Below are positions 1 through 33,231 of a stretch of DNA of 64,000 nt, piece by piece (the stretch's first letter is position 1; every line of letters begins with the position of its first letter). Below the pieces are notes generated by a model. It saw only the letters and a list, made by a program, of their open reading frames with translations, was not told the DNA's origin and searched no databases. The stretch is from a virus (taxonomy: Duplodnaviria > Caudoviricetes): positions 64,001 to 128,000 of the IMG/VR virus record IMGVR_UViG_3300021400_000128. One strand, 5' to 3'. A program made the position numbers and the translations under genes.

Positions 1-612
1 ACCGCCTTTTTGTAATGGTGTAGGTAATCTCGTAATATCGCCTTTTGTTCCCATGGATGTGATTATTGCTGATGCTTTTTCGTCATCTGTCATATTCATA
101 AATTTATTATATTGAGAATTATTATTGGAATTAGACCTTTGTTGTCTCAAAGTTTTCTTGTATTCAGAAAAACTTTGAGTCAGCATCTTACGAGCAGCAT
201 CAGATAATGTTCCGTCTTCACTATGTAAAGATCCATCAGTTAAATCAATATATGTTTTCTTTCCATATAAATCATCAGAAGCATTCAATGAAGATGCATT
301 AATATATAGCCTGTCTTTTCCGTGTTTTGTCCAACGCTTAAATCCGGCACGTTCTAATTGACTGATAAGATTAGTATCCTTGTTTGTTAACAAACCTGTA
401 ATTTCTTTGTTACGTTGATCTACCAATCTTTGTGCTCCGCGTCCCCTTGCGTTTTGCTGCGCAGTCGCTTGTGCCTTCAATTTCCGTTTATAGTTGGTTA
501 TTCTGATATATTTTCTTTTCATTGATGGCTTGCCATTATCACGTAATATTGGATTGCCGTTTTCGTCTTTTCTGATTACCATTACTGTTTTATAATCTCG
601 TCCTCCACCCAT
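1..612 (-). CDS. MGG-leader protein (MGGGRDYK...), runs off the window edge
   Basis: Translated by hand. ATG at 612 follows SD GAGGTGA just after the portal stop, and the frame is open to position 1. Contains GFKRWTKHGKDRLYIN. Confidence 0.8.
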   Translation of the reverse strand, partial: MGGGRDYKTVMVIRKDENGNPILRDNGKPSMKRKYIRITNYKRKLKAQATAQQNARGRGAQRLVDQRNKEITGLLTNKDTNLISQLERAGFKRWTKHGKDRLYINASSLNASDDLYGKKTYIDLTDGSLHSEDGTLSDAARKMLTQSFSEYKKTLRQQRSNSNNNSQYNKFMNMTDDEKASAIITSMGTKGDITRLPTPLQKGG

Positions 613-624
613 ATTTCACCTCAC

Positions 625-2331
625 TTAAAATGGAACATTATTAATATCAATCTCTGAATTTTCGTCCGGTTCTAATTCGTCAGGTGTTTCATCTTCCTGT
701 TGATTACTTTCCCGATCAAATCCGAACTGAGCATTTTTCATTTGCTCATTCTGTGACATCTGCTTTTCAAACGCTTCGTCTGACATAGCATCATTCTGTT
801 CTTTGATCTCAGCGATCCGCTCTTTGGATTCCTCTACCGTCTCATACGGGAACAGATATTGCCGTATCTCTTCCTGACCGACCACCCCGGCTTCAAGTCC
901 TTTCATTAGTTCATCCAGTGTCGGAGTTACGTGCTTCTTTGCTTCTTTTTCGGATTCGCCGTAAAAGTGCATACGGAATTCTGTCTTTGAACGGATACCC
1001 ATTTGTAAATCAGACAGCCACTGTGCGCGCTCTGTATCAGCATCGATGATATAACTGTCATCAGCAATGATGGTAATTTGAGCATCCGGATTCACTTTTT
1101 CATGAAGAATATTTTTGCCGATCCATAGGATTGCCCTGGTTACTTCCTTCAATGCTTTTTCAATGCAAATCATTTCTTTATTTGCATTCTGGATCATTTC
1201 TTGACGTTCACCGATCCACTGTGTAGCCGTTGTACTTGTTATCTGACTTCCTTCCAGAACGTATCGCTTTGCTCCAAGTCCTATACGCATTGAAAACATA
1301 TCAAGCATCTTTTGTACACCGGCTGCATTTTCTGTAACACGAAGCGACGGGTTATATTCCTGATACATTCCGCCATCAAGTATCTTGTCTCCTGCATTAA
1401 TAAACAACTGCTCCCCGGCTTCCTGTGGAGCTTTGATCTTGCCATCTTCATCTGTATTAAACATTGAAGATGACATCAGTACCATTTTTCTGCCGAGTTT
1501 AAAATCTGTGATGAAGTTATCGAATGCGCAGTCAAGACCCTTTAGCACATCTTCTGCACCTGAAATGATAGACACCCCGAAAGGTGAATCGTAATCAAAA
1601 ATGTTGACACCGGATTTTCGGATCAATGAGAACCAGGGAAAGGGGCTTCCGGTATGAACTAACTGTCCGTAGCCTTCCTGTTCGATATTGACACCGTACT
1701 TATCCAGATAAAAAGATTCAATATCATACGTTCCTTTGTCATTCAGCAAATGGATTGATACAAGAGAAACTTCCTCACCGTTCATGATTCTGTCTGAAAC
1801 AAAAGCTGCTTCTCGCATAATGGAATTGTCATAGCTGATAGGAATAATTTGTTCGGCGGATAAGTAATTTATCCCGATACTGGCTCCGTCCACAAGGTTT
1901 TCACTCTTCTCAGTGATTTTCATTTTTCGGACATAAACCTCAAACGCCCCTGTTCCGCTCCATCTGGATGTAGTAACAAGCTCGTTTGCATTACGCCAGA
2001 AGTCATTTTCACCGAACACGCCGCTGATTTCATCTTTACCCATGACAAATTCATTTGAAGCTTCATCATCGATAACGATACGGGTTTTTTCATTCAGGAG
2101 GATGGATGCCCAATCTTCGGCACCTTTCAGGAGCATATTGGTTCTGTGTCGTTTTACTTTTTGATAACTATCATTATCATTCAGATCCATTTTCTTTTCA
2201 TATTCATGGAATCCTCTAACATTACCTTCCAACCAGTTCCGCCATTCCGCAACTTTATCGTACATCACGGATTTTTTAACATCCTTGTTGTACTTTCTGT
2301 TAATATAGTCAATTACGTTCTGATAGTTCAT
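625..2331 (-). CDS. Phage portal protein (SPP1 gp6/A118-like)
   Basis: 568 aa with WASILLNEK, SPFGVSI, F.LG.K, YNPSLR and TAT motifs and an acidic tail; lies near terL. Confidence 0.8.
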   Translation of the reverse strand: MNYQNVIDYINRKYNKDVKKSVMYDKVAEWRNWLEGNVRGFHEYEKKMDLNDNDSYQKVKRHRTNMLLKGAEDWASILLNEKTRIVIDDEASNEFVMGKDEISGVFGENDFWRNANELVTTSRWSGTGAFEVYVRKMKITEKSENLVDGASIGINYLSAEQIIPISYDNSIMREAAFVSDRIMNGEEVSLVSIHLLNDKGTYDIESFYLDKYGVNIEQEGYGQLVHTGSPFPWFSLIRKSGVNIFDYDSPFGVSIISGAEDVLKGLDCAFDNFITDFKLGRKMVLMSSSMFNTDEDGKIKAPQEAGEQLFINAGDKILDGGMYQEYNPSLRVTENAAGVQKMLDMFSMRIGLGAKRYVLEGSQITSTTATQWIGERQEMIQNANKEMICIEKALKEVTRAILWIGKNILHEKVNPDAQITIIADDSYIIDADTERAQWLSDLQMGIRSKTEFRMHFYGESEKEAKKHVTPTLDELMKGLEAGVVGQEEIRQYLFPYETVEESKERIAEIKEQNDAMSDEAFEKQMSQNEQMKNAQFGFDRESNQQEDETPDELEPDENSEIDINNVPF

Positions 2332-2344
2332 TTATCCTCTTTGG

Positions 2345-3055
2345 TCAGGGTTGAATATCTCCCGCTGAAATCCATTTTGTACTCCCATCTTTCCATTGCA
2401 TGAGAAAATTATAGGAAACAACTTTCATCATATTTCCGTCAAGATCAGGTATTTCATATACGTTTCCATTGACTTTTAATACTGTTCCTTCCTCTCCTTT
2501 CGGATAGTAGACAGGATTCATTGTGTCATACCAACCGGCTTTAACATCATTCTTTAGCTTCACTTGTTTGCCTGCAAACTTCTTTTGTAATTCTTTCAAT
2601 TTTTCATTTACGGTAATCATTTTTGATGCTTTTAGAAATGAGGCGTTTCGGATTTTCGTTACCTTTTCAGGTGAATTTTTTGCTATTTCGAGAAGTATTT
2701 TTCGAATTCTCGATAATTGTTGCTGATTTTCACCCGTTCCAAAGTCTCCGTTTTTTAATTTTTTATCTAACCCGATAACGGCATTTTTATCTCTTTTATC
2801 AATAGCACGTAAATATTGCAGAACAGCTCTTTGCATTAAAGGTCTCTCATTTACGATCACAGCATCTTTATCATTACTGCCATGAATATTATCGAAATAT
2901 GTCATAACAGAATCAGGATTTATAGGTTGATTAATAATTTCAGAAATCAGTCTGTTGGCTTCTTTTTCATTGTCTTTATACGATCCGACACGTACATATT
3001 TACCATTCACTCGCTTATAAAGTGCCGCACCTGCATTATCACGTCCGCCGCCCAT
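2345..3055 (-). CDS. MGG-leader protein (MGGGRDNAG...), unknown C-terminal domain
   Basis: Start placed at the MGGGRD Met after SD GGGGTGGTGA. Leader shared with 1-612 and 32473-33231. Confidence 0.75.
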   Translation of the reverse strand: MGGGRDNAGAALYKRVNGKYVRVGSYKDNEKEANRLISEIINQPINPDSVMTYFDNIHGSNDKDAVIVNERPLMQRAVLQYLRAIDKRDKNAVIGLDKKLKNGDFGTGENQQQLSRIRKILLEIAKNSPEKVTKIRNASFLKASKMITVNEKLKELQKKFAGKQVKLKNDVKAGWYDTMNPVYYPKGEEGTVLKVNGNVYEIPDLDGNMMKVVSYNFLMQWKDGSTKWISAGDIQP

Positions 3056-3056
3056 G

Positions 3057-3533
3057 TCACCACCCCACATCTAATCCTGGAAATCTGCTCATTTCTGAAT
3101 CAAATCTTGTTGACTGCGTTATCGTGTTTCCGTTTTTGTCTTTAAATGAAAAAGTCAAATCCATAGCTCCATTGTTGATGGTGGAGCTTTGAATCGTTAT
3201 TCCATATTCTGAAAGAAGCTTTCTTAACATTTGCGGGTGTTCAAACAGTTGAGATAATGCTATTCTCATATCGTTGTATTTCGGTTGTATTTGTGAATTA
3301 TTCTGCTGATCGATTCCCGTGTATTCGTTTCGGGCAGTCTTGTTTATTGTTACAACCATGTTTTTGTCTCTTGCTTGTGTAGCCGCTGCGATTCCTGCAA
3401 TATACTCATACGCAGTTCCTTCGTAAACTCCACCACGACCTTGGAATGAGTGCTCCGCGAGAAATTCATCGATTGCGTTCCTTGCGGTCTGTTGTGTCTT
3501 TTTACCGTCTCTATATTCTGCACTTCCGCCCAT
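3057..3533 (-). CDS. MGG-leader protein (MGGSAEYR...)
   Basis: ORF track; SD AAGGCGGTGA; directly downstream of CTAAGAA element 1. Confidence 0.8.
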   Translation of the reverse strand: MGGSAEYRDGKKTQQTARNAIDEFLAEHSFQGRGGVYEGTAYEYIAGIAAATQARDKNMVVTINKTARNEYTGIDQQNNSQIQPKYNDMRIALSQLFEHPQMLRKLLSEYGITIQSSTINNGAMDLTFSFKDKNGNTITQSTRFDSEMSRFPGLDVGW

Positions 3534-3648: not shown

Positions 3649-4320
3649 TTATGATTTTTTCGTCCATTGGCCGAGAATATATCGTTGATAGTCAGCTCCG
3701 ATATACATTGATTTGTATGATTCTTTTATGGTGTCTGGAATGTATTGATTGTCATCTATTGAAAAGTTGAGATATAGTGCATTCTTTTCAGAAGATTTTG
3801 TGATCCATTCTCTGAAAAACCAATTCGATTTATCAAGTGGGGTTGTGTTGAACCAGTATCGAGAATTCTTTATTGAGCTGCACCCAATAATATTTTCAAC
3901 AAATGATTTTGGTGTCAAGGGTGCTTGATCGAAAAAGGCCCCTGCAAAATTGAAATATTGTGCTTTTTTCACTGAATCATCATCGTGTGAATTGAACAGG
4001 TAGAATTGATTTGCAGTTTTATGTTTCTTGATTAGAACGTATCTCTGTTCTCTGTTGAAATCCATATTGTATTGAGTTTTTAATTCAGCATTCGATATGA
4101 TTTGTGACACAATATTTTTACTGCACGTTTGATAACTTAATCCACATAATGCAAAATCGTTATTATCAAAATTTTTCATTGCCCATTTGATAAATGTTTC
4201 GAGGATGATGGTGCTTTTTCCCGAATGAACCGCTCCGTCACATATCAGGGTTTTGAATTTTGTGTTCGGAAAATCAAGGATCTTTTTCTGTTTTTCACTT
4301 AGCTGCATTGTTTTCTCCAT
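3649..4320 (-). CDS. Stand-alone terminase large subunit ATPase-domain paralogue
   Basis: Colinear with the N-half of 6209-7489 (LSEKQ, ICDGAVHSGKS, YWFN, NALYL, YQRYILG.W). Walker B is FDQ instead of FDE, and there is no nuclease domain. Confidence 0.8.
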   Translation of the reverse strand: MEKTMQLSEKQKKILDFPNTKFKTLICDGAVHSGKSTIILETFIKWAMKNFDNNDFALCGLSYQTCSKNIVSQIISNAELKTQYNMDFNREQRYVLIKKHKTANQFYLFNSHDDDSVKKAQYFNFAGAFFDQAPLTPKSFVENIIGCSSIKNSRYWFNTTPLDKSNWFFREWITKSSEKNALYLNFSIDDNQYIPDTIKESYKSMYIGADYQRYILGQWTKKS

Positions 4321-4345: not shown

Positions 4346-5584
4346 CTACTCGGCCATAAATGACCGAGCTTCTTGCTTCATCGCTGCGTCTTGCTGTTGA
4401 AAACGTATTTTCGAACAGTAGAGGGCGCGGGCTCCACAAGCGTTATTGGTTTGGCCAGTTCCTGACCTACCATTATTCAAAAGGAATTGTCTAATTCCTT
4501 CGTTTCTAATATTGACAGCAGCATTGATATCACGGTCATGATGTGTTCGGCAGTTATTACAAACCCATTGACGGATACGTAGATCTTTCACTTCTGGATG
4601 TAATGAGCCGCAAACTGAACAGGTTTGTGAGGATGGGTACCATTTATTGATCCGTATAAGGACTTTTCCCCTGTCTTGTAACTTATAATCTAAAAAGTTC
4701 AGAAACATTCCATAACCATTATCAAGTGTCACTTTTCCGTTACCAAAGCCTTTATTAGACATTGCTTTCATATTCAGATCTTCAACACAGACCATGTCAT
4801 ACTGATTGGCTATCTCAGCAGATTTCTTGTGAAGAAAATCGCTTCTTTGGTTTGCTATATGTCTATGTACTTTTGCAATTTTTAATTTTGTTTTTTTATA
4901 ATTATTGCTTCCTTTCGTTTTATGCCGTAATTTCCTTTGTGCGTGAGTTAGCCGCTTTTGCCCTTTTCGGAAGTATTTCGGTGATCCACAAGTATTTCCA
5001 TTGGAATCAGTATATAAACCATCCGATTTATAATCGAGACCAATTGCATTCAATTCTGGCTCGGTAACAGACCTTTTATCAGAATCATACTCAAACAAAA
5101 CTGAACAGAAATATTTTCCATCATTTGTCATAGAGACGGTTGCAGATTTTAGTTTCCATCCGTCATCAGGATATCTATGAAGAATAGCTTTTACCTTTCC
5201 GATTTTTGGTAATCGTATCTTTTTATTTTCAAAATCAAGGGATACTGTTCCATTTTGATTATTAGTTGTATATGAATCCCGAGATTTCTTTTTTGATTTG
5301 AATTTTGGGCGTCCGGTTCCTTTTGCAGTGAAAAATCGTTTGTACGCATCCTGTAAATTAAGCTGAACATTTGCCAATGCTAATGAATCCACTTCACGAA
5401 GATATGGGTATTCATCTTTATACATAGCAGGGGTTGGTTTTACAATGGATTTATCCTTTTTATAAGCATTTTCCCGTGTTGCAAGCATCAAATTCCAGAT
5501 TTTCCGACAACATCCAAAGGTCTTTGCAAATAAGACTTTCTGTTCATCGTTTGGATATATTTGATATTTGATAGCTCTGTTCAT
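4346..5584 (-). CDS. tnpB: TnpB RNA-guided endonuclease
   Basis: OrfB HTH, RuvC D (IGLDY), E (VEDL), D (DRDINAA) and CxxC..CxxC zinc finger. Confidence 0.95.
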   Translation of the reverse strand: MNRAIKYQIYPNDEQKVLFAKTFGCCRKIWNLMLATRENAYKKDKSIVKPTPAMYKDEYPYLREVDSLALANVQLNLQDAYKRFFTAKGTGRPKFKSKKKSRDSYTTNNQNGTVSLDFENKKIRLPKIGKVKAILHRYPDDGWKLKSATVSMTNDGKYFCSVLFEYDSDKRSVTEPELNAIGLDYKSDGLYTDSNGNTCGSPKYFRKGQKRLTHAQRKLRHKTKGSNNYKKTKLKIAKVHRHIANQRSDFLHKKSAEIANQYDMVCVEDLNMKAMSNKGFGNGKVTLDNGYGMFLNFLDYKLQDRGKVLIRINKWYPSSQTCSVCGSLHPEVKDLRIRQWVCNNCRTHHDRDINAAVNIRNEGIRQFLLNNGRSGTGQTNNACGARALYCSKIRFQQQDAAMKQEARSFMAE

Positions 5585-5994
5585 ATTTGTACGTTGTTCT
5601 GTCTTTCGATATATTTGAGTATATTTTCTTCACTGGTAGAGCCAATTGTCTCCACAAAATAGCTACCATTCCAAAGGTGTCCTTTCCAGAGTTTGTTCTT
5701 TATTTCGGGAAATTCAAGCAATAGATGACGACCAGATATCCCTTTTAACCATCGGACAATATCTGTCACGGATAATTTGGGAGGCGAAGATACAAAACAG
5801 TGGACATGATCCATCTCCCCAACTTTCGCTTCAATGACACTAAATCCTTTTTCGTTTCCTATTTCTGCAAGTAGATCATATAATCTTTCGGAAATATTTT
5901 CATTCAATACTTTTCGACGATATTTTGTACACCAAATAATATGATAGTTGATGTTATAAACACATGTTCGTCCGTGAGTGTATTTGTTTGACAT
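5581..5994 (-). CDS. tnpA: IS200-family Y1 (HUH) transposase
   Basis: YHIIWCTKYRR, DHVH, LKG.S, LW..SYF and YIE.Q motifs. Confidence 0.97.
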   Translation of the reverse strand: MSNKYTHGRTCVYNINYHIIWCTKYRRKVLNENISERLYDLLAEIGNEKGFSVIEAKVGEMDHVHCFVSSPPKLSVTDIVRWLKGISGRHLLLEFPEIKNKLWKGHLWNGSYFVETIGSTSEENILKYIERQNNVQI

Positions 5995-6208: not shown

Positions 6209-7489
6209 TCATGCCGTTCCTCTTACGCCCATATTGTCAATAAACTTTTCCCACGCGTATTCTTCTGCATCGGCAACATCATTGACCTTTGGTTCGTTAT
6301 CTAAACGAACATCTTTATTTGGCTTGCTTTCATCCCAAACCTGATTCTGCGTGGAGAATATCACCATCTCACACCATTTCATGACGTGCCATTTCCCCTG
6401 GTTCAGCATCCTTTGTTTAGCGTATATCCGTGTATTAATTGATTCTTTTCTTGCAATCGTTACACCAATCGGCACGCCTGCTCGTTTGATTGCTGCATAA
6501 ATCCCGTGTGTCAGTGTTTCAGGTTGATCTGTCCAACAATATGTAGGTTTTATTTCTCTGTCCTTATAAATCCATTGGTATTTCTTGATACACTTCTTTG
6601 CAAAGTCAACGAAATCGGTTTCAATTCCATCCGGAGCAACACCTGTGCTGTCTCGCATGAATTCTTCAAGAACAACCACGCCATTTCCTTTATCCATGAT
6701 CCCGCAGCAGATAAATACCGTATTAGAATGATTTACACCGAAATCAATACCAAAAGTCAGATATTTAATTCCTCTTGGGACTGCATCCAGTATCCAGTTT
6801 TTCGGATTGTTGGCAAACTGAGTAAAGATGACACCTTCAGCTCTCACCCACATTCCGAGAATGTACCGCTGATAGAAGACACCGCTGTACATAGACTTGT
6901 AACGTGCGATAATGTGTTCACTCAAACTTGGGTTATCTTCAAGAAGAAAGTGTAGGTATAAGGCGTTCTTTTCTTCTTTACCAAGTATCCATTCCTGATA
7001 AAACCAGTGATCAGGTTTGTCAGGGTTGCAGTTGAACCAATATTTAGAACCTTCCACGGAGCATCGAGCACAGCCTTGATCCACAAATGATTTTGGCATC
7101 AGGGCAACTTCATCAAACATGATCCCTGCCATCGTAATACCCTGGATCAACTGATAACTTGCTGCATCTCGTCCGCCGTACAAGTAGAAATTATTGACAA
7201 CATCACCTTTGCTGATCTGGAGAAGGTTTTCTGTCCGTCTGAAATGGATGTTGTATCGTTTCTGGGCATAGCGGAGATTAATATATGGCTGTACAATATT
7301 TCGGTTGCATGTAGAAAAGGTTTTCCCGCACAATCCGAAATTGCGTCCATTGAAATTTCGCATTGCCCAATCAACAAAAGCGACGGTCATGATACTTGTC
7401 TTTCCGGAGCGGATGGCTCCATCACAAATCAATGCATCGTAATTTGTGAATGGAAATGCCCGGATCATGTTTTGCTTTTCGCTTAACAA
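6209..7489 (-). CDS. terL: Terminase large subunit (PBSX-like)
   Basis: Walker A GAIRSGKT, Walker B IMFDE, CNP coupling motif, nuclease GIDFG and D..DA..Y. Start moved to a TTG after SD AAAGGAG because the upstream ORF extension overlaps element 2. Confidence 0.93.
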   Translation of the reverse strand: MLSEKQNMIRAFPFTNYDALICDGAIRSGKTSIMTVAFVDWAMRNFNGRNFGLCGKTFSTCNRNIVQPYINLRYAQKRYNIHFRRTENLLQISKGDVVNNFYLYGGRDAASYQLIQGITMAGIMFDEVALMPKSFVDQGCARCSVEGSKYWFNCNPDKPDHWFYQEWILGKEEKNALYLHFLLEDNPSLSEHIIARYKSMYSGVFYQRYILGMWVRAEGVIFTQFANNPKNWILDAVPRGIKYLTFGIDFGVNHSNTVFICCGIMDKGNGVVVLEEFMRDSTGVAPDGIETDFVDFAKKCIKKYQWIYKDREIKPTYCWTDQPETLTHGIYAAIKRAGVPIGVTIARKESINTRIYAKQRMLNQGKWHVMKWCEMVIFSTQNQVWDESKPNKDVRLDNEPKVNDVADAEEYAWEKFIDNMGVRGTA

Positions 7490-7510
7490 TATATACGCAA
7501 GCTCCTTTAA

Positions 7511-7567
7511 CAAAAAAAAAGAAGGCACACGATCAAATGTGCCTTCTTAGGGTCTGTTTTTATTATA
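7511..7567 (-). promoter_or_regulatory. CTAAGAA-box leader element 2 (terminator type), upstream of terL
   Basis: TATAAT..CAGACCCTAAGAAGGCACA-loop-TGTGCCTTC-T9. Confidence 0.85.
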
Positions 7568-7788: not shown

Positions 7789-8622
7789 CTATGCTTTTAT
7801 TCCATATTGGCTTTCTAAAGTTTCAAACATGGCTTCCACATAAGCCTTTGAGTTGTTACTTGCATTATCGCCATTTGAATATACATCCGCGAAAGCTTCC
7901 GCAAATCCTTCCATCACATTTGTTTTCGCATATCGGGATATTCCTGATAATAATGCGTCTTTTGATTTTACATGAGCTTTCTTCTTTGCAAGCTTCCAAA
8001 CATCATTCAGAAATTCGCCAGATAATCTTTTTTTATATAATTTACTTAATTCTAAAAAAGTCAAATTGCCTTCTTGCATCCAATTGAAATAATAATTATG
8101 TATAGCATGACCAAATTCATGAGCGATCGTTGCTTCAGGTGTTGAATTTGGTGTATTGTAAGACGATTCATACAAAACAGGATTATCCTTCATCTCCCAA
8201 AACACAGGATTCAATGTCAATTTTCCGCTTTGGCTCATAGCGGCAATTGCATCATTTCGGATATCAAATTCTTTAATAAATCCTTCCATAAAAGGATAAC
8301 GTGCTTCCAAGTCAGATATAACGCCCATAACACGCTTTGCCATTGACAATTCAGTTCTGTTTATAAAATCATCCGATACTGCTTTATTACCGTACCTTTC
8401 ACGCATGACAGAAGCAAATTCTTCTTTTGTCTGCGTGTCGTTTATCCTATCTTTGAAAGTTTTTTCTGTCGGCGGCTGCTTTGCGGCTAACCGTTTTTGC
8501 CGTTCCGCTTCTCTGGCTTCCTGTCGCCTCCGCTCAAGTTCATCGATCTCGCTCTGCGGAGCTCCGTCTTGTATTGCCCTTGCTATCTTTTTCGCTAATC
8601 TGTAACTTGCCGATCCGCCCAT
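7789..8622 (-). CDS. MGG-leader protein with zincin-like metallopeptidase domain
   Basis: MGGSASYRLAKKIA leader; HEFGH, S.YA and EGFAEAF motifs. Confidence 0.8.
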   Translation of the reverse strand: MGGSASYRLAKKIARAIQDGAPQSEIDELERRRQEAREAERQKRLAAKQPPTEKTFKDRINDTQTKEEFASVMRERYGNKAVSDDFINRTELSMAKRVMGVISDLEARYPFMEGFIKEFDIRNDAIAAMSQSGKLTLNPVFWEMKDNPVLYESSYNTPNSTPEATIAHEFGHAIHNYYFNWMQEGNLTFLELSKLYKKRLSGEFLNDVWKLAKKKAHVKSKDALLSGISRYAKTNVMEGFAEAFADVYSNGDNASNNSKAYVEAMFETLESQYGIKA

Positions 8623-8687
8623 AAGGGTATCCTCCTCTCTGATTTAGATACCCTTTCTTAGAGCGCATATCTTTTCTAATATTTTAA
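8623..8687 (-). promoter_or_regulatory. CTAAGAA-box leader element 3 (SD-sequestering type)
   Basis: CTCTAAGAAAGGGTATC...GAGGAGGATACCCTT-ATG; the stem closes at the start codon. Confidence 0.75.
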
Positions 8688-11261: not shown

Positions 11262-12164
11262 TTATCCTCCATATCCTAATCTGTCAATTTCATCTAATAA
11301 TACCTTGACATATGCCTTTGAAACTTCACTGGCATTGTCTTTATTAGTATATATATCTGCAAATGCTTCCGCAAATGCTTCTTTTGTTGGGCTGCCGCCA
11401 TATGACTTCGCATCACTGGCATACCCCGAGATTTCATGTCGGAAAGATGGTAAGGCTTTTTTATATCCTATTGATTTTTTTGCTTCCTTTTCCAGACGTT
11501 GTAAAGTTTTACTTTTTCTGATATCATCCATCATATTATAAGTATCAAAAAAACCTTTTTTCTTTGCATCTTTCAACATTCTGCCTAATAAGTAATTATG
11601 TATCGCATGACCGAATTCATGTGCAACCACAGATTCAGGTGTCATATTTGGGATATCAAATCCTCTTTCAGCTCCTGAAAACAATTTTGGATCATCTACC
11701 TTTGAAAAATGTACGCCTAACCCAAAGGTTTGACGTGTTTCACCAGTAGCCCCACTGAATGTAGATTTAATTTCTGCGGCAGTTGTACCACCAGGATCAA
11801 CGATGTAATGGAATCCATTTATAGCCCCCTGCATAAAGGGATATCTTTCTTCAAGTTCAGAAATGGTATTCAACGCCCGTTTTATCATTTGTAAATCATG
11901 GTTCTCCGTAAAACCCTTTGCAACATTTGTTTCGCCATATTTTTCAATCAACACAGAACGCAGATCTTCTTTTGTCTGCGCATCATTTATTTTATCCCAA
12001 AAAGACTTTTCTTTTGGCTGCTTTGCGGTTAACCGTTTTTGCCGCTCCACTTCTTTCGCTGCCTGTCTCTGCTGTTCAAGTTCATCGATTTCACTTTGAG
12101 GAGCCCCGTTCTGCAATGCTCTTGCTATCTTTTTTGCTAACCTGTAGCTTGCTGATCCACCCAT
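11262..12164 (-). CDS. MGG-leader protein with zincin-like metallopeptidase domain
   Basis: MGGSASYRLAKKIARA leader; HEFGH and EAFAEAF; paralogue of 7789-8622. Confidence 0.8.
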   Translation of the reverse strand: MGGSASYRLAKKIARALQNGAPQSEIDELEQQRQAAKEVERQKRLTAKQPKEKSFWDKINDAQTKEDLRSVLIEKYGETNVAKGFTENHDLQMIKRALNTISELEERYPFMQGAINGFHYIVDPGGTTAAEIKSTFSGATGETRQTFGLGVHFSKVDDPKLFSGAERGFDIPNMTPESVVAHEFGHAIHNYLLGRMLKDAKKKGFFDTYNMMDDIRKSKTLQRLEKEAKKSIGYKKALPSFRHEISGYASDAKSYGGSPTKEAFAEAFADIYTNKDNASEVSKAYVKVLLDEIDRLGYGG

Positions 12165-24184: not shown

Positions 24185-24749
24185 TGTACCGGAATCCGCA
24201 GTAAGGGCATTGCCGTTCAAATTGTTCGTCTGCATAGTCATCTAAGTCAATCTCCTCATTGTCGTTTATTTTACTGATTGGTTCTGTTGGTCTTGTATGG
24301 ATCGGTATTTCTTCATTGCTATCATATTCTGAATCATCGGAATATGTCTGATCGATTGGCAATGGTTCCGGGTCCTGAGTGATAATACCGAACCCAAAAC
24401 TGTTCATATCAAAACCAACGTTTTGAAGCTCTTTCATTTCGATACTGAGCTTTTCAAAGTCCCAACCGGATTGTTCCTTCACCTTGTTATCCGCTAATCT
24501 GTATGCTTTGATCTGCTCATCGGTAAGGTCATCTGCCATCACACATGGCACTGTAGTCAGTCCGAGTTTCTTTGCGGCAAGAAGACGGGTATGTCCTGCG
24601 ACAATAACATAATCCTTATCTATTACGATAGGCTGCTTAAAACCAAATTCCTTGATTGACGCAGCAACATATTTCACCGCCGGAAGGTTGTTCCGTGGAT
24701 TGTTTTCATACATTTTCAGTTTCTCAACCGGTATCTCTATTATTTCCAT
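24177..24749 (-). CDS. ParB N-terminal domain protein
   Basis: Paralogue of 22554-23147; ends in CPYCG. Confidence 0.9.
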   Translation of the reverse strand: MEIIEIPVEKLKMYENNPRNNLPAVKYVAASIKEFGFKQPIVIDKDYVIVAGHTRLLAAKKLGLTTVPCVMADDLTDEQIKAYRLADNKVKEQSGWDFEKLSIEMKELQNVGFDMNSFGFGIITQDPEPLPIDQTYSDDSEYDSNEEIPIHTRPTEPISKINDNEEIDLDDYADEQFERQCPYCGFRYND

Positions 24750-25411
24750 CAGCTTTTTCTCTTTCCATAAATCCATGCAATAGGAATAAGCGTATAAGTG
24801 TCTTTTAGTGCTCTGATACAGTTAACCATCGTCATTCCACTTGTACAAACATCATCAATAAAGATACAAACTGGTTTATTAGAGTGTCCGATTACCTGTA
24901 TCACACCTCTGTCCTGTGTTACATCCGCGTATGTTGATCCTGATAAGTGTCTGTCTGCAAACATCTTGACGTATGGACAATTTAATTTCTCAGCAAGAAC
25001 TTTCCCGACTTCGGAAATGAAATGTTTTTTTGTTTTGCTATGTCCTTGCGGAGCATTATAGACAAAGCAGTTATCGGTTTTATGAATCAATTGCCGGATC
25101 GTGAGTTCGAACTCACTGGCAACCATATTCAGAGCTTCAGGTTCCTGTTCCGCTTTTACTCTCTTGAGCCATTTGACCTGTTCTTTTTCGCTGGTGTCCC
25201 AAGAGCGAATAGACAACCAACGATAATCACCTTTTCTGTTAAATTTCGGAGCTAATGTTCCGATATTAACAGGCATGATTTTCAATTCATGGTCAACAGT
25301 ATCAAATGCGCTGTATGTACTGATTTTTTTCTTTGTACTTTCCGGAGATAACAAGCCATTATCAAATGAAAACACATCGAAGCTGAACCCAGCTCCTAAA
25401 TCATTTCGCAT
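24749..25411 (-). CDS. Phosphoribosyltransferase-like protein
   Basis: PRPP-binding loop IFIDDVCTSGMT. Confidence 0.75.
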   Translation of the reverse strand: MRNDLGAGFSFDVFSFDNGLLSPESTKKKISTYSAFDTVDHELKIMPVNIGTLAPKFNRKGDYRWLSIRSWDTSEKEQVKWLKRVKAEQEPEALNMVASEFELTIRQLIHKTDNCFVYNAPQGHSKTKKHFISEVGKVLAEKLNCPYVKMFADRHLSGSTYADVTQDRGVIQVIGHSNKPVCIFIDDVCTSGMTMVNCIRALKDTYTLIPIAWIYGKRKS

Positions 25412-25935
25412 TCGATCCCCATGTTCGTTAACCGTTCGTAGGTTTCCCGCTGTTCATTTAGGCTCTTGCATTCAATCTGTACAATGAAGCGAGGATTACC
25501 TGATCCGGATGTTTCATTATCATCCTCATCCTCTTCTTCATCGTCAGTATCATAATTCGGGAAAAACCCGAAGTCGGCGATGTCGAATTCCAACGGATCG
25601 AGAAGCATGAATTCTTGTTCCAGACGGTCATAATCCCAGGTGGACATTTCCGCTACTTTGTTATCTGCAAGACGAAAAGCGCGGATCTGGTCTTCTGAAA
25701 GGTCATCTGCCATGATGCAAGGGACTTTTGCCATCTTTAACCGTCTGGCTGCCTTGTATCTGGTGTGCCCGCAGATGATCATGTTGTTCTTATCAATAAT
25801 AATGGGTACTTTAAAACCGAAATTCTGAATTGAATTTGCCACGTACTGGACTGCATCGGAGTTCTTTCGTGGGTTGTTTTCATACATTTGAAGGTCGTTG
25901 ATGTCTTTATATACTATCTGTAACTCATCTGCCAT
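25396..25935 (-). CDS. ParB N-terminal domain protein
   Basis: YENNPR.N, FGFKVPIIID, GHTR, AFRLADN. Confidence 0.9.
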   Translation of the reverse strand: MADELQIVYKDINDLQMYENNPRKNSDAVQYVANSIQNFGFKVPIIIDKNNMIICGHTRYKAARRLKMAKVPCIMADDLSEDQIRAFRLADNKVAEMSTWDYDRLEQEFMLLDPLEFDIADFGFFPNYDTDDEEEDEDDNETSGSGNPRFIVQIECKSLNEQRETYERLTNMGIECEMI

Positions 25936-26006: not shown

Positions 26007-26180
26007 TTTTACCTTATTTTATTATTCACATCGTTGTCATTTCATCCCATATATAGTGATATGGTATCCATCGTGTGGAAGTGTCGAATTCCGTCACAGG
26101 CTGAATCACGGGTATCCGGTACTCACCTGTTCCAACGAACATCGCTTTTTCAAGATTTAATAATGGGAGCTGACTTTTCT

Positions 26181-26894
26181 TCATTTCTTCTTACCGAGCT
26201 TTTCCCGCTGTTTTCTTATCCGCTCATCATGTTTTTCCATATCTTCAACGTTGTATGTCTTTCCACCAAACAATTGATATCCTCGTTCTAACGGTATCAC
26301 TTCATCCTTCAGCTCTTCTGGCACAATACCGTTAAACAATATCTGTGATGGGTTCAGTCGTTTCTTCATTTCTTCATAACCCATCCAGAAATTATCATAA
26401 TAATCCTTCGTCTGCATTGTCCCAACGGTTGACACACAGACCACCGAGTTTGTAGGTTCACCGTCGAAGCAGAATTGAAACGTCTGTGGCAATGCCCATG
26501 TGATCGTTGGGATAATGTTCACCCCGTTCATTTGAAGATAGGCAGCTACCCAGTGTTTTCGGTAGTGATTCCACACCTGCATCGCCTTCGGCATATTGGT
26601 ATATATCGAAAACTCAGGGGAACAGACATAGCGGTACTGTTTCAGACGATCAAGATACAGGTCAGGTGCACTCCAAAGACGTTCGAATTGATAATCATGA
26701 ACGTGAAAATGGATACCACGCTTAGATGGATCGTTCTTTTTGATATCACTTTGCATATAGTTGAATGGGATCCACTTTGTTGTTGTGTCGTATTCCTTCA
26801 CTCTGCCTGCTATCACAGGAATTCCATATTCACCGACACCATCAAACAGAGCTTTTTCCATATTTAGCAGTGGGACAATAAACTTTTTTGCCAT
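26181..26894 (-). CDS. DUF4417 protein
   Basis: IHF..HDYQFERLW, SP.FS.Y..MP...Q.WN.YR.HW, FCFDG.P. Confidence 0.85.
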   Translation of the reverse strand: MAKKFIVPLLNMEKALFDGVGEYGIPVIAGRVKEYDTTTKWIPFNYMQSDIKKNDPSKRGIHFHVHDYQFERLWSAPDLYLDRLKQYRYVCSPEFSIYTNMPKAMQVWNHYRKHWVAAYLQMNGVNIIPTITWALPQTFQFCFDGEPTNSVVCVSTVGTMQTKDYYDNFWMGYEEMKKRLNPSQILFNGIVPEELKDEVIPLERGYQLFGGKTYNVEDMEKHDERIRKQREKLGKKK

Positions 26895-29838: not shown

Positions 29839-29854
29839 TTCTCTCTCCTCTTAT

Positions 29855-30529: not shown

Positions 30530-30544
30530 TCTTTCGTCCTATAG

Positions 30545-30609: not shown

Positions 30610-30715
30610 CTGATTTTCTTTATGTGTTTTTTTTATTTTAATTGGCGATATCCTTGATGGAATATACTTATCATCTGTTTACTGAATTATCGCCGGATAT
30701 ATGAGCTTCGACATA

Positions 30716-31039
30716 TTACCTTTCCTGGTACTTCGGACATTTCTCATTATCGAAATATACCCCAGTGGGTTTTGTTTCATACTTTTCACATGATCCGGCA
30801 GTGTAGTCTGTTGTCTTACGACCGCTGAACATCTTTCCTGCAAATTTACACGTTCTGCAAGCCATGTTCTTTTGCTTTTCACGCTGACGCTCTGCTGATG
30901 CCGCCATAGCTTCATCTTCTGAATAATAACGGAGCCATACGCTTTTCCTGCTGTCTGAAAGACTGTTAAATTCCTTCTTTTCTTCATCTGAAAGGTCATT
31001 CCAGATTTCATCCAAATATTTTTTCTCACTATCTGTCAT
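30716..31039 (-). CDS. Small Cys-rich partner protein downstream of the ART
   Basis: C..C..., C..Y..KP..V......C..Y pattern; SD GAAGGTGA. Confidence 0.7.
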   Translation of the reverse strand: MTDSEKKYLDEIWNDLSDEEKKEFNSLSDSRKSVWLRYYSEDEAMAASAERQREKQKNMACRTCKFAGKMFSGRKTTDYTAGSCEKYETKPTGVYFDNEKCPKYQER

Positions 31040-31051
31040 TTTTCACCTTCT

Positions 31052-31948
31052 TTAAATTTTACTCCAATCAATTTCAGGGCGTTCAATAGTTTTTGCATCT
31101 TGTCCAACTATAGTAAACACGACTTGTGGAGTTCCATATCTACCACCAGTTCTGTTGATCGCAATCGGTTTCAGTTTATAACCTCTCTGTAAGATGATTT
31201 CAAATTCAGTTCCATAATCAGATTGTTTTGAAACACCATCCCATCCTAAACCGCTTCCCATCCCATGAATACTAAAAGGTTCTGCGTAAATACCTTTTGA
31301 TCCTTTCGGTACAAAAATCTTCATTTCCACGCCACTAAATCCACTTTCAGAAGTCGCACCTGTTGACATAAAGTTATTAACATCTATGATTTTACCTTGA
31401 TCGATGGCTTCCTGAACACCATCCAACATTGCTGGTATAGGCTGAGCAAGCATTAAACCAAACATTCTGTTCATATGTCGTGTTGATACTCCGCGCCGCA
31501 CCCAGATATCTTCTGGAATCTCGGTTTTATCCAAAGCAGCTGTCAGCTGATTCACACGTTCCATTGTTCCATCGTAAAGGTATTCTGTAGGATCCAGTCT
31601 TCCACCTAATAATTTATTCATTGAATCATAAGCACCACCGGTAAATTCATAAGCAGCATCTCTTTCATCATCTGTAAAGCTATTCCATGCTTTACCGGAG
31701 CTTTCCCGGAATTTATCATCAACTTCTTGTTTGTCTTTAGTCCATATCGCATTATCTAATCGTTTTTGATCGTATGATTCACGGTATGGGCTTTGATTTT
31801 CTGAATTCTGCTGTCTTCTTTTTTCTCGTTCCGCTTCTTTTGCTGCTTGTCTCTTGCGTTCAAGATCATCAATTTCAGTCTGCGGAGCTCCATTCAGCCT
31901 TGCATTGGCTATTTTCTTTGCTAATCGATAACTTGCTGATCCACCCAT
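31052..31948 (-). CDS. MGG-leader protein with VIP2/C3-like ADP-ribosyltransferase domain
   Basis: Y..MN..L, VRRG, FMST and E.EIIL.RG motifs. Confidence 0.85.
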   Translation of the reverse strand: MGGSASYRLAKKIANARLNGAPQTEIDDLERKRQAAKEAEREKRRQQNSENQSPYRESYDQKRLDNAIWTKDKQEVDDKFRESSGKAWNSFTDDERDAAYEFTGGAYDSMNKLLGGRLDPTEYLYDGTMERVNQLTAALDKTEIPEDIWVRRGVSTRHMNRMFGLMLAQPIPAMLDGVQEAIDQGKIIDVNNFMSTGATSESGFSGVEMKIFVPKGSKGIYAEPFSIHGMGSGLGWDGVSKQSDYGTEFEIILQRGYKLKPIAINRTGGRYGTPQVVFTIVGQDAKTIERPEIDWSKI

Positions 31949-31994
31949 AGAAAAGACACCTCCTAATCAAGATGCCCTTTCTTAGAGCGCACAT
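31949..31994 (-). promoter_or_regulatory. CTAAGAA-box leader element 10 (SD-sequestering type)
   Basis: CTCTAAGAAAGGGCATCT pairs with AGGTGTCTTTTCT-ATG, covering part of SD GGAGGT. Confidence 0.8.
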
Positions 31995-32033
31995 CTTTTT
32001 ATTTGTTTACTATTATTTTAACTCCGTACAATT

Positions 32034-32468
32034 TTATTTAGTTGTTTTTTTATATCCGGGCCATTCAGGAAGGTTTCCTAATTTCCTAATAAATCGTTCA
32101 GTTTTTTCATTCTGAACTTTTAGATTATTTTCAATATCTTCATATTCTTTTTCATTGTAGCTAATACCATTATCACGAAGCAATTGAACAAATTCATTTA
32201 CAGTCATGTTGTTTTCCTCTCGAACAGCTTTAATCTGTTCACCTGTCAGTAATCCGTGAAACAAGCGATTAGCAACAGTATATTTTCTATCTAAATCGCT
32301 ACTGTCCACATTATATCCGTCACCACATTCAGGACATTTCCAATAAATAACGGTTCCTGTTATAACATCGTTACCGATATAACCTTCTTGAATTTCAGAA
32401 ACAAGTGTATGCATTGTGTATTCTTGACAATCTGAACAAAACATTTTTTTCTGTTCACCAATATTCAT
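32034..32468 (-). CDS. MqsA-like antitoxin (zinc ribbon + HTH)
   Basis: CSDC...CPEC, then LLTGEQIKAVRE..MT..EF and YE.....QN. Confidence 0.65.
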   Translation of the reverse strand: MNIGEQKKMFCSDCQEYTMHTLVSEIQEGYIGNDVITGTVIYWKCPECGDGYNVDSSDLDRKYTVANRLFHGLLTGEQIKAVREENNMTVNEFVQLLRDNGISYNEKEYEDIENNLKVQNEKTERFIRKLGNLPEWPGYKKTTK

Positions 32469-32472
32469 CGTC

Positions 32473-33231
32473 TTATCCTCTCTGTTCATCTGTAGCACTG
32501 TTTCTCATCGGTGCTGTCCTGTGGAGACCGACTAAAACAGCATATGGCTTTCCATCGTTACTATGAAAAGGGTGCACTTTCACATAAGTCCTGATACTTT
32601 CACCGCTGTTATTTGTAACGAACGTCTCAAACTCCCATAAATAATCATTTTCTGGTATTCCATCTATTATAGGTGTCTGTCTTGCATCTAACACTCTCCT
32701 TAAATTTTCTGGAGTGAGTTGTGGCATTACCTGTTCTAATATTGCTTTATAATCTGGCATATCATTGTATTGTAAATAATTACGATTTTTTACTTTACCA
32801 TCAAAAAACAAGAATCCACCCTTTTCTGTTTCTATGTCTCCTGTAATTAGTCTGTTAACCGCATTGGTTTCAGGTGAGCCATTTCTATCTTCTGGAGACA
32901 CTTTATCGTCATCATTTAAATTATCAATTGCTAACATTCTTTGTAAGAATCCGACGACTTCCCTTCCGGTCTGTGGCAATGGAGTCATCGCTGCCCTGCC
33001 TGTAGCCGTCGGATTCTCGAATTTGTCTAATACACGGTTTTCCAGTGTCCGTAATATGTTTGTTCGCTGTTCTGCTATCGGCTCTGCCATATTTGCAAGA
33101 GCCATATGATCTTCAATCGTTATATTGATATTATGAAAGCGATGATTGACAGGCTTCCCGTCTTTTCTGAAATAAATTCCGTTTCTTCTGTAATATCGTA
33201 CCGCACCTGAATTGTCTCTGCCACCGCCCAT
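32473..33231 (-). CDS. MGG-leader protein, C-terminal possible MqsR/RelE-fold RNase
   Basis: MGGGRDNSG leader; LWEF...TYVKV...LVGLH ending; followed by an MqsA-like gene. Confidence 0.55.
   Translation of the reverse strand: MGGGRDNSGAVRYYRRNGIYFRKDGKPVNHRFHNINITIEDHMALANMAEPIAEQRTNILRTLENRVLDKFENPTATGRAAMTPLPQTGREVVGFLQRMLAIDNLNDDDKVSPEDRNGSPETNAVNRLITGDIETEKGGFLFFDGKVKNRNYLQYNDMPDYKAILEQVMPQLTPENLRRVLDARQTPIIDGIPENDYLWEFETFVTNNSGESIRTYVKVHPFHSNDGKPYAVLVGLHRTAPMRNSATDEQRG

Follow-up and report, generated by a model that had tools for sequence, protein, structure and literature searches.

The internal proteins of phage T4 (IPI–III and Alt; PMC3012670) are a diverse, fast-evolving set that includes an ADP-ribosyltransferase (ART), is made late and is delivered with the DNA against the host. 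Their sole common feature is a short N-terminal capsid-targeting sequence (CTS) of about ten residues, which directs them to the scaffolding core and is removed by gp21, the prohead protease. MuF toxins (PMC5576092) and polyvalent proteins (PMC5512222) of temperate Firmicutes phages carry ART, metallopeptidase, RelA/SpoT-like and DUF3626-like domains, with a small ORF downstream of the effector and head genes in the neighbourhood. DpdA/DpdB, which inserts 7-deazaguanines into DNA (PMC10164549), combines a TGT-like TIM barrel with a ParB-fold NTPase and is found in phages and mobile elements, and in 80α the host protease Prp processes capsid and scaffold proteins (PMC5744158) at an L27-type propeptide with an NLQ[FY]F-type motif (PMC9405229), exposing Ala on these structural proteins.

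The proteins described here resemble each of these systems in part. As in T4, with which they show no sequence similarity, a short N-terminal sequence is all that joins a diverse set, an ART included, which may likewise be made late and delivered; in contrast to the CTS, only a free Gly-Gly is invariant, no prohead protease for CTS processing was found on searching, and the gene of a predicted TGT-like enzyme is linked to the tags. The cargo types, the setting in temperate Firmicutes phages, the small downstream ORFs and the head-gene setting recur from MuF and polyvalent systems, but MuF is a structural domain of ~110 residues borne by one fusion protein, whereas the carrier module here measures from a few to 45 residues and serves many small single-cargo genes.

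Nine Gly-Gly-tagged proteins in a gut phage

We analysed a 64,000-nucleotide window (positions 64,001 to 128,000 of IMG/VR record IMGVR_UViG_3300021400_000128) of a complete 136.9 kb gut phage genome, for which no cultured close relative was found. Nine of its proteins start with MGG. Eight lie in the window, all on the minus strand and at the starts given by the initial annotation; the ninth (MGGSRDYK, 283 aa) is 1.9 kb ahead of the window start. Genes are named below by the position of their first codon.

1..612, minus: MGGGRDYK protein, first 204 codons of 365 aa, running off the window directly after the portal gene; full gene at genome 63515-64612, minus (L004:13515-14612:-)
625..2331, minus: portal, SPP1 gp6-like (phrog_533, 2.5e-71)
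2345..3055, minus: MGGGRDNAGA protein, 236 aa, no assigned function
3057..3533, minus: MGGSAEYR protein, 158 aa
7575..7775, minus: 66-aa partner of peptidase A, DAPE motif (phrog_20195)
7789..8622, minus: Gly-Gly tag, 45-aa helical leader and HEFGH metallopeptidase type A, 277 aa
11041..11259, minus: 72-aa partner of peptidase B (phrog_20195)
11262..12164, minus: Gly-Gly tag, 45-aa leader and HEFGH metallopeptidase type B, 300 aa
13296..14195, minus: MGGSAKFR protein with DUF3626-like domain, 299 aa (phrog_8314; Atlas structure)
25396..25935, minus: ParB N-terminal domain protein adjoining DUF4417 (PF02195, 1.8e-08)
26026..26184, minus: 52-codon remnant of a second DUF4417 copy, its N-terminus matching the second DUF4417 of L006 and L016
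26181..26894, minus: DUF4417 protein, 237 aa (PF14386, 1.3e-51)
30716..31039, minus: 107-aa Cys-rich partner of the ART
31052..31948, minus: Gly-Gly tag, 45-aa leader and R-S-ExE ADP-ribosyltransferase, 298 aa (PF03496)
32034..32468, minus: Zn-ribbon and HTH protein of MqsA-like architecture, partner of the 33231 protein
32473..33231, minus: MGGGRDNSGA protein, 252 aa, weak RNase-toxin-like fold lead
35265..36053, minus: ADP-ribosylglycohydrolase (PF03747, 1.2e-34)
36069..36617, minus: DarA_C domain protein (PF18789, 1.2e-17; phrog_1926)

ORFs 3533, 8622, 12164, 14195 and 31948 begin MGGSA(S/E/K)(Y/F)R, and 612, 3055 and 33231 begin MGGGRD. ORF callers place the starts of 3055 and 12164 five and three codons further upstream, respectively; in both, the MGG methionine is the start common to relatives. 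Because the Gly codons (GGT/GGC/GGA) and Ser codons (AGC/AGT/TCG/TCA) differ among the nine genes, the motif is neither chance nor a nucleotide repeat and is selected at the protein level. Third codon positions across 105 MGGRG genes are evenly A, T and C.

Beyond the tag, 8622, 12164 and 31948 share about 45 residues (initially counted as about 50) that form a basic, ER/K-like helix. Searched against 1.84 billion representatives, a profile of this leader matched 34 protein clusters, all of 300 aa or less and none a fusion to MuF, bearing ~35 unrelated C-termini. The match begins at residue 1 in 33 of the 34, and the exception, at residue 14, is likely a miscalled start. A set of 61 MGG proteins likewise falls into 35 C-terminal clusters, and one C-terminus can follow different leader classes: P0030 carries that of 3055 on a long MGGSASYR leader, P0034 shares that of the ninth gene and in L019 the peptidase domain rides a class-2 leader. 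These data support the leader as a real, N-terminal, protein-level module swapped among many unrelated C-termini. They do not bear out the initial view that the short basic leader is the defining tag: at least five leader or spacer classes follow the Gly-Gly, all different, and, judged from sequence, the only unifying feature is a free Gly-Gly N-terminus.

The MGG genes sit around terL, portal and scaffold, with 612 and 3055 flanking the portal gene as initially described. Related phages keep the 3533 protein (68-69% identity) in the terL–portal interval, making it a core member of the clade; where portal relatives of 62% identity occur, a MuF-like gene follows and MGG genes are absent. This genome has no MuF domain, as first proposed, but Gly-Gly tag and MuF occur together in other phages, so that 'MuF-independent' fits this genome and not the system. 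The CTAAGAA element that had drawn attention ahead of MGG genes precedes seven of the nine; since it also stands before lysis, nrdG, terL, scaffold, tail and tape-measure operons, it is a general late leader rather than one specific to them. The cassettes of 8622, 31948 and 33231 additionally have upstream DNA in common, the GCGCYCTAAGAARGGG variant, so promoter and 5′ end may move together.

Cargo domains and their small partners

The predicted R-S-E ADP-ribosyltransferase (31948) was recovered by Pfam (ADPrib_exo_Tox, PF03496, 1.6e-21) with R152, S195-T196 and E248xE250 all present, and matches phrog_16625 (Bxa ART), Alt-like PHROGs and PDB 8za7 (1.6e-10). Both peptidases possess HEFGH and EAFAE motifs, with a Pfam match to ATLF that is sub-threshold only. 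For 14195, the DUF3626-like assignment draws on structure (Atlas model TM 0.72 to MuF+DUF3626 proteins, 0.62 to RHS C-termini), and a Pfam search gave no DUF3626 support; elsewhere this domain is fused to MuF in phages and to RHS toxins in bacteria. The proposed MqsR-like fold of 33231 (TM 0.32/0.64, on a model with pLDDT 0.49) is at best a weak RNase-toxin-like lead; its neighbour does have a Zn-ribbon and HTH, with HTH_19 (9e-4) and MqsA (0.03) both sub-threshold. Matches of the ninth gene to PDB 8vx3 (SaSAS, 8.8e-12) and to the C-terminal region of phrog_7625 ('head morphogenesis') identify its C-terminus at the sequence level as a small-alarmone-synthetase-like domain; the second gene upstream encodes an HD hydrolase. 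Homologues of the 365-aa protein start with MGGRG, MAKGSRGG or a Prp-type propeptide; PF00644 is present in one. Its AF2 model (pLDDT 83) best matches a cyanophage pre-ejectosome chain, and PARP/DT-like matches (Z 4-5.5) hint weakly that the C-terminal ~140 aa may be ART/PARP-like. Choline-binding repeats on one leader protein suggest an extracellular role.

The initial description of interchangeable, toxin-like C-termini thus stands in part: they are swapped, and sequence matches support some as toxin-type domains of the kind fused to MuF or head proteins in other phages, but most have no recognisable domain. Two nearby genes are of related interest. The DarA_C protein has relatives among the P1-type antirestriction proteins, which are packaged in the head (phrog_1926, 'released from the phage upon host infection'). 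The ADP-ribosylglycohydrolase, judging by its family, could reverse ART activity, and its homologues stand among MGG genes in L008 and L017.

The pairing of effectors with small downstream genes holds for three effector types, whose cognate partners are kept across related phages and co-vary with effector subtype. The two DAPE partners are mutually homologous, as first noticed; that of peptidase A is 55% identical to the gene following the type-A peptidase in L018, and that of peptidase B is 58-62% identical to type-B partners in L006 and L018. The Cys-rich protein shows 55% identity over 75 aa to the gene following the orthologous ART in L016, and the Zn-ribbon/HTH partner 31-64% to genes following orthologues in L016 and L019.

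Gly-Gly tags and DUF4417 across phages

The system is not peculiar to this phage but part of a widespread pairing with DUF4417, with or without ParB-N, both present in the window. Hundreds of phages of Clostridia and Streptococcus have free N-terminal Gly-Gly tags, mostly MGGRG, on no fewer than 20 unrelated cargo families; cultured carriers include Dorea phage DO134P1 (gene 18) and Streptococcus phage A1 (gene 27). DUF4417 is nearby in 41 of 43 loci collected by tag, and tagged genes are found in at least 66 of 80 collected by DUF4417, often with overlapping start and stop codons; such adjacency could also mean shared timing and not direct interaction. A phage keeps to a single tag variant in 103 of 110 loci, and tagged or DUF4417 genes stand directly before terS/terL in other phages. 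In mycobacteriophages DUF4417 is gene 1, with no Gly-Gly-tagged neighbour. Eight proteins have an L27/Prp-type propeptide (..NLQ[FY]F) exactly ahead of GGRG, some in one locus with direct MGGRG genes, which makes the free Gly-Gly end appear to be the functional form; cleavage here would expose Gly-Gly on accessory cargo, unlike the 80α case, and the nine proteins of the window phage lack a propeptide.

Within this genome DUF4417 adjoins no tagged gene, the nearest being ~4 kb off, across nrdDG, and the local tags (MGGSA.YR, MGGGRD) are unlike MGGRG. They are tied to the wider system by the shared Gly-Gly, by the C-terminus of the 365-aa protein, orthologous to MGGRG proteins, and by synteny with L016 and L019.

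The DUF4417 protein (AF2 pLDDT 86) models as a TGT/DpdA-like TIM barrel. The best PDB matches, 1iq8 (Z 9.7), DpdA 7ui4 (Z 9.0) and 6fv5 (Z 8.9), are moderate against a usual best of 7-8, and a second, independent search of BFVD returned phage DpdA-like proteins. At ~200 aa it has, unlike DpdA, no detectable sequence similarity to TGT, none being found by profile search. The family has 19 invariant residues, of which D67, S96, S155 and G189 lie just past predicted β-strands in the model. DUF4417 therefore looks like an enzyme and is a candidate partner of the tags. ParB-N is often fused to it, as in L021, L023, L025 and L027, and is encoded by the adjacent gene here, mirroring DpdA and its ParB-like ATPase DpdB (PMC10164549); the Dpd system itself has no Gly-Gly-tagged neighbours. 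Relatives have two full DUF4417 copies, the second reduced here to the 52-codon remnant, in which a Pfam search found no match.

Possible roles of the tag

A common start might have no targeting role, reflecting optimised initiation or stability (efficient methionine removal, an N-terminal Gly that stabilises the protein) or common ancestry in a single gene that was duplicated and whose 5′ end and promoter cassette recombine. The shared GCGCYCTAAGAARGGG upstream DNA is of this kind, but the tag persists in phages whose upstream DNA is unrelated and on 20-35 unrelated cargo families, its variants co-vary within genomes and a Prp propeptide precisely ahead of GG cannot stem from initiation effects, all of which makes this account highly improbable. 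A non-covalent capsid-targeting peptide, as initially proposed, binding scaffold, portal or capsid interior in the manner of the T4 CTS or of the cargo-loading peptides of encapsulins, would suit the position within the head module, the MuF gene that follows homologous portals where MGG genes are missing and the T4 precedent of diverse internal proteins with only the CTS in common (PMC3012670). With DUF4417 as an unrelated late neighbour, we nevertheless find it unlikely: it leaves unexplained both the two-way DUF4417 linkage of roughly 95% and the restriction to two invariant glycines across very different leaders, no processing protease was found and the tag coexists with MuF elsewhere.

Alternatively, DUF4417 and ParB-N could act as a DpdA/DpdB-like transglycosylase that removes a base, the Gly-Gly α-amine resolving the intermediate, so that DNA-bound cargo is packaged by terminase and enters the next cell. 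The predicted fold, the ParB-N partnership, an N-terminus made free and exact by methionine removal or a Prp-type cut right before GG, and gene positions directly ahead of terS/terL would all agree with this. In DNA glycosylases such as T4 endonuclease V and Fpg, and in HMCES/YedK, the N-terminal residue left by methionine removal bonds C1′ of DNA, a precedent in its favour. The scheme is, however, purely inferential; a glycosylamine from a primary amine would be labile, the equivalence of the DUF4417 Asp to that of TGT catalytic sites is only putative and DUF4417 could instead place an ordinary modified base in the DNA and have nothing to do with the tags. We regard covalent attachment as unlikely.

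On balance, we consider it probable that MGG is an address label, read most probably by DUF4417 with ParB-N. Removal of the initiator methionine would free a Gly-Gly N-terminus. Small and basic residues usually come next, then a leader or spacer of one of five or more types and a freely exchangeable C-terminal cargo domain. Cargo genes would be transcribed with late packaging, head and lysis genes, and their products (ART, peptidases, alarmone-synthetase-like and DUF3626-like domains) would act on the host, with cognate inhibitor-like partners that may neutralise their effectors and so keep some cargo harmless in the producing cell. By analogy with T4 internal proteins and MuF-fused toxins, a dedicated phage function, most probably DUF4417 with its ParB-N partner, would recognise the tag, and the cargo may thereby be packaged and injected, carried within the capsid or linked to the DNA into the next host.

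MGG genes and their late leader element

The phage genome is complete (136,915 bp, with terminal repeats; the window spans its bases 64001–128000) and carries nearly all of its genes on the minus strand. By its predicted genes it is a temperate, siphophage-type virus; an integrase gene is present (PF00589, 3.6e-26), the portal is SPP1-like (phrog_533) and the major head protein matches phrog_544. The large terminase (terL) was read from the sequence, with Terminase_6N annotated on orthologs in relatives, and a putative scaffold was assigned from position. The nearest relatives are uncultured contigs in public metagenome assemblies: GenBank phages gave no DNA-level match to the genome, and none for its core 158-aa protein or PARP-like family, and an IMG/VR search with the 158-aa protein found no relatives. 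Two terminase genes lie close together in the window:

3649–4320 (−), a second, partial large-terminase gene (223 aa), 44% identical to the ATPase half of full terL
4346–5994 (−), IS200/IS605 tnpA–tnpB-looking genes (N-termini read by eye), adjoining the partial terminase
6209–7528, full terL

Duplication of a fragment or capture of foreign DNA could explain the partial gene, which does not resemble a disrupted one.

All eight genes starting Met-Gly-Gly (MGG) that the initial annotation had listed were found where it had placed them. One of these, gene 612 (genes are named by start coordinate), is truncated at the window edge and has a full product of 365 aa. A ninth MGG gene, with an MGGSRDYK start and 283 aa, lies 1.9 kb ahead of the window. 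The Gly and Ser codons vary among the copies, both serine codon families included, and it is therefore the peptide that is conserved, not the DNA. A nucleotide-level repeat or an internal Shine-Dalgarno (ATGGGNGG) is ruled out as the cause of the tag by freely varying third codon positions. We also reject a eukaryote-type N-myristoylation motif (MGxxxS), because it matches MGGSASYR alone and not the E, K or D variants and because bacteria, to our knowledge, have no N-myristoyltransferase.

The CTAAGAA element described upstream of the MGG genes does precede seven of the nine, but is not specific to them: it also lies ahead of the lysis, nrdG, terL, scaffold, tail and tape-measure operons, and therefore dates the MGG genes as late without setting them apart. 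It is a promoter-proximal hairpin leader in which a TATAAT box is followed after about 12 nt by AGACCCTAAGAAGGC, and this by a stem-loop, a U-run and the ribosome-binding site. Three MGG cassettes have a variant of this leader in common, GCGCYCTAAGAARGGG, found upstream of 8622, 31948 and 33231 (at 8661, 31985 and 33271). The variant has no U-run, and its hairpin, by eye, seems to enclose the ribosome-binding site and to end at the ATG. In these three genes the promoter, leader and gene 5′ end may travel as a single cassette, and the hairpin may gate translation.

Modularity of leader and C-terminus

Behind the tag, a stretch of about 45 residues (about 50 in the initial annotation) is common to three proteins, which diverge beyond it. 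A search with residues 1–60 of the ADP-ribosyltransferase (ART) protein, 31948, matched 18 proteins, all of which start with this leader and differ at their C-terminal ends. The HMM search of the first residues that had been proposed shows the leader to be strictly N-terminal: a profile built from the first 50 leader residues and scored on all 1.84 billion cluster representatives retrieved 34 clusters, with the match beginning at residue 1 in 33 of them and at residue 14 in the other, whose start is probably miscalled. Across the 1.84 billion representatives no match was longer than 300 aa and none was fused to MuF, and the idea that the leader is an internal linker of longer MuF fusions is rejected, this exhaustive search having given no such protein.

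The sole non-terminal leader match (P0046, E 1e-4) is a repeat within an unrelated protein. In this metagenomic protein of 352 aa, which by eye looks membrane-anchored, the leader part A..GAS..EI..LE.QR forms an internal tandem repeat; because it is repeated inside an unrelated protein, the stretch may be an independent small helical module.

Only M-G-G is invariant across leaders, and at least five leader types stand behind it:

Leader types behind the MGG start
Helical MGGSA.YR..KKIA
MGGGRD, then a Y.RRNG.Y.R.DGKPV motif
Post-portal ..DENG..
Conserved 158-aa core protein
MGGSAKYRY

With their first 45 residues removed, 61 MGG proteins fall into 35 unrelated C-terminal clusters, and one and the same C-terminus can be found on different leader types, which makes the proteins modular at either end. 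On related contigs, MGG genes number four to eight per 20 kb; they lie around terL, portal and scaffold, and also in a moron region.

Cargo domains and partner genes

Cargo of the MGG genes
31948 (−), R-S-ExE ART: PF03496, 1.6e-21, 77 bits against a cut-off of 23.4; PHROG Bxa/Alt-like; PDB 8za7
8622 and 12164 (−), HEFGH...EAFAE metallopeptidases: similarity to the lethal-factor Pfam family, sub-threshold only
14195 (−), DUF3626-like domain: structural match to MuF+DUF3626 proteins in their C-terminal half (TM 0.72), and to the tips of RHS toxins
Ninth gene, small-alarmone-synthetase-like: PDB 8vx3 ‘SaSAS’, 8.8e-12, residues 106–263; Tas1 weakly
612 (−; 365 aa, after the portal), C-terminus with weak resemblance to ART/PARP: one homolog carries PF00644
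33231 (−), no more than a weak lead to an RNase-toxin-like fold: MqsR structural match, TM 0.32/0.64, on a low-confidence model

The 31948 protein has the catalytic motifs of a C3/Alt-like R-S-E ART (R152, S195-T196 and E248-x-E250). Pfam RelA_SpoT gave nothing in a whole-genome search that included the ninth gene; an HD hydrolase (phrog_990, 2.9e-36) lies two genes upstream of it. Structure matches to 612 include many of PARP or diphtheria-toxin type, all weak, the top one being a cyanophage pre-ejectosome chain (Z 5.5). The partner (the small gene after an effector) of 33231, at 32034, has Pfam matches to MqsA (E 0.03) and HTH_19 (9e-4), both below cut-off. Pfam recognised almost nothing on 37 leader proteins and 10 MGGRG cargo proteins, and in most of the family's other C-termini no domain is recognisable.

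The partners of three effector types are kept across phages and co-vary with the effector subtype, which, as far as sequence can tell, is what one would expect if effector and partner formed cognate inhibitor or immunity pairs. After 14195 no partner gene was found; the 613-bp gap contains only ORFs of at most 30 aa.

Partner identity across phages
Type-A peptidases with type-A partners, 55%
Type-B peptidases with type-B partners, 58–62%
ART with Cys-rich partner, 55%
33231 type with Zn-ribbon–HTH partner, 31–64%

Three further genes lie upstream of the ART block, the first of them inserted between it and the other two:

33318–34514, TnpB-like gene (by eye)
35265–36053 (−), ADP-ribosylglycohydrolase (PF03747, 1.2e-34)
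36069–36617 (−), DarA_C protein (PF18789; phrog ‘released from the phage upon host infection’)

The ADP-ribosylglycohydrolase may be a second safeguard against the phage’s own ART.

Linkage of the tag to DUF4417

In other phages, homologs of the C-terminus of the 365-aa protein start as MGGRGS.., as MAK(G/S)SRGG.. or with GGRG behind a ..LQLF propeptide. Their genes form groups of two to three tandem tagged genes just upstream of terL–portal–MuF, both in IMG/VR and within Clostridia-labelled MAGs as prophages (MAGs which include Oscillospiraceae, Christensenellales and Lachnospiraceae); tag and MuF therefore coexist in those phages. A local HMM finds a gene for DUF4417 (PF14386) directly upstream in nearly all tandem-tagged loci.

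The linkage appears from either side. Among the best 80 of at least 547 IMG/VR DUF4417 loci, 47 are followed within 4.5 kb by an MGGRG gene, whose start often overlaps the stop codon of DUF4417, and at least 66 have a tag once immediately upstream genes, variant tags and propeptide forms are counted. Conversely, a DNA pattern for MGGRG..SG, counting only tag ORFs with enough flank, gives a same-strand DUF4417 within 3.5 kb in 41 of 43. The 133 distinct tagged proteins form 20 unrelated clusters, third positions in their tag codons vary freely, and one tag variant per phage is seen in 103 of 110 loci. Two cultured phages, Dorea phage DO134P1 (genes 19 and 18) and Streptococcus phage A1 (A1_26 and A1_27), are carriers, which makes the system directly testable.

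In the window, a ParB_N gene adjoins DUF4417, and another enzyme-plus-ParB-N pair lies nearby:

26181–26894 (−), DUF4417 (PF14386, 1.3e-51)
26026–26184 (−), second DUF4417 copy, a 52-codon remnant
22554–24241 (−), C5 cytosine DNA methylase (PF00145, 4.4e-44), then a second ParB_N protein (PF02195, 7.4e-09)

The relatives L006 and L016 carry two full tandem DUF4417 copies. In L016 the ART and its partner stand directly ahead of the two DUF4417 genes; in the window phage, nrdDG intervenes.

At least 547 IMG/VR contigs and 493 GenBank phages encode DUF4417, among them mycobacteriophage D29, where it is gene 1. In D29 (L155) and 385 other mycobacteriophages, this gene 1 marks the left end of cluster-A-type genomes. 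D29 gp2, which follows DUF4417, starts MDPAQ and has no Gly-Gly tag, and the DUF4417 match in Updawg overlaps with a gene whose annotation is VIP2-like toxin. A different tag may go with the same enzyme in actinophages.

Propeptides before the tag

Eight proteins have ..(D/N)LQ(F/Y)F directly before GGRG, six of them in four loci (L120, L121, L132 and L248) plus P0066 and P0067, and some of these propeptide-bearing genes share a locus with direct MGGRG genes. The sequence corresponds to the L27 propeptide motif of Firmicutes, MLxx(D/N)LQ(F/L)F′A, which is cut by the host protease Prp; in phage 80alpha, Prp likewise processes capsid and scaffold proteins (PMC9405229, PMC5744158). Whether by Met removal or by a cut with Prp, the mature end would be the same, Gly-Gly-Arg-Gly. 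Because both routes would give the same end and the leader is always at residue 1, the sequences argue that the free Gly-Gly N-terminus is the functional entity.

In Streptococcus phage IPP48 (L157), about 60 annotated residues of gp29 precede ..INFTL-GGGRGAN, downstream of a ParB-N–DUF4417 fusion; this extension is either a miscalled start or a longer, non-canonical propeptide.

Predicted fold of DUF4417

An alignment of 22 DUF4417 sequences has 19 invariant residues, and in the strand map as we read it D67, S96, S155 and G189 fall just after predicted β-strands, where the active sites of TIM barrels usually sit. Besides the invariant D67, conserved acidic residues lie in the PDFS and DGEP motifs. 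With an AF2 model (pLDDT 86), a non-Foldseek search of 48,161 PDB representatives gave Z ≥ 8 for three chains only: archaeosine tRNA-guanine transglycosylase (ArcTGT, Z 9.7), the DNA preQ0 insertase DpdA (Z 9.0) and QTRT2 (Z 8.9). The first non-DUF4417 matches in BFVD are phage queuine tRNA-ribosyltransferases (prob 0.97–0.98, TM 0.41–0.49). Foldseek against the PDB returned weak triosephosphate isomerase matches only, and a sequence profile of DUF4417 gave no TGT match. These moderate scores make a TGT/DpdA-like TIM barrel a good lead, not proof.

DpdA requires a ParB-like ATPase, DpdB (PMC10164549). DUF4417 likewise has a ParB-fold partner, as the adjoining ParB_N gene in the window and as ParB-N–DUF4417 fusions elsewhere (L021, L023, L025 and L027), an arrangement noted in 10.1101/2025.10.10.680097; the resemblance to DpdA/DpdB is in fold and architecture only. 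In the searchable literature DUF4417 is mentioned only in annotations or for its fusion to ParB.

Discussion

Among known systems, the T4 internal proteins with a capsid-targeting sequence (CTS) and the MuF polymorphic toxins come closest. Like the latter, the MGG proteins have variable C-terminal domains (35 clusters), conserved small downstream partners and a temperate phage as carrier; unlike them, they have no N-terminal MuF, and the leader proteins are at most 300 aa with the leader at residue 1. Like the T4 CTS proteins, they have in common a short N-terminal sequence on otherwise unrelated proteins, but the tag has no similarity to CTS, and whole-genome Pfam searches for a hidden prohead protease of S78 or ClpP type found none. 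Membership in either family fails on the carrier that defines it, the MuF domain or the CTS. The initial proposal of MuF independence holds for this phage, whose complete genome gave no match to PF04233 (Phage_Mu_F) at E ≤ 1, but not beyond it, since tag and MuF coexist in other phages. In phages whose portal is 62% identical, a MuF-like gene directly follows it and MGG genes are absent.

From sequence, gene context and predicted structure we recover the tag, its residue-1 position, the modularity of its carriers, and the linkage and fold of DUF4417. We infer from these that DUF4417 would recognise the tag, that the cargo would be packaged and injected, and that the partners would neutralise it. 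On the most likely reading, the MGG start would be an address label on late-made, swappable cargo, which the DUF4417/ParB-N function would handle and which would exit the cell together with the virion or virion DNA. In the window-phage clade the set would have expanded to nine members, replacing the role that MuF fusions have elsewhere and drawing upon the same effector domains and inhibitor-like partners.

Three other readings are less likely. DUF4417 and ParB-N could form a DpdA/DpdB-like machine in which the free amine of the tag acts as nucleophile in DNA transglycosylation, so that the cargo is joined covalently to phage DNA, packaged and injected. Such a linkage would explain why the amine must be free, why the enzyme is TGT-like and partnered by ParB, and why the tagged genes stand before those of the terminase; it is reached purely by inference, and we think it improbable. 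If true, it would mean protein-to-DNA conjugation loading virion cargo in hundreds of Firmicute phages, and its expansion into a nine-member polymorphic arsenal in this 137-kb phage. A plain, non-covalent capsid-targeting peptide is possible, but leaves the linkage to DUF4417 unexplained. That the MGG start merely affects translation or stability is unlikely in view of the propeptide forms.

If the free Gly-Gly is a delivery label, two glycines at an N-terminus would be a very small, portable address, by which many gut and streptococcal phages would send interchangeable enzymes and anti-defence proteins into cells. It would also provide a first function for DUF4417, a simple sequence rule for spotting unknown injected effectors in metagenomes, and a way to load phage particles with foreign proteins.
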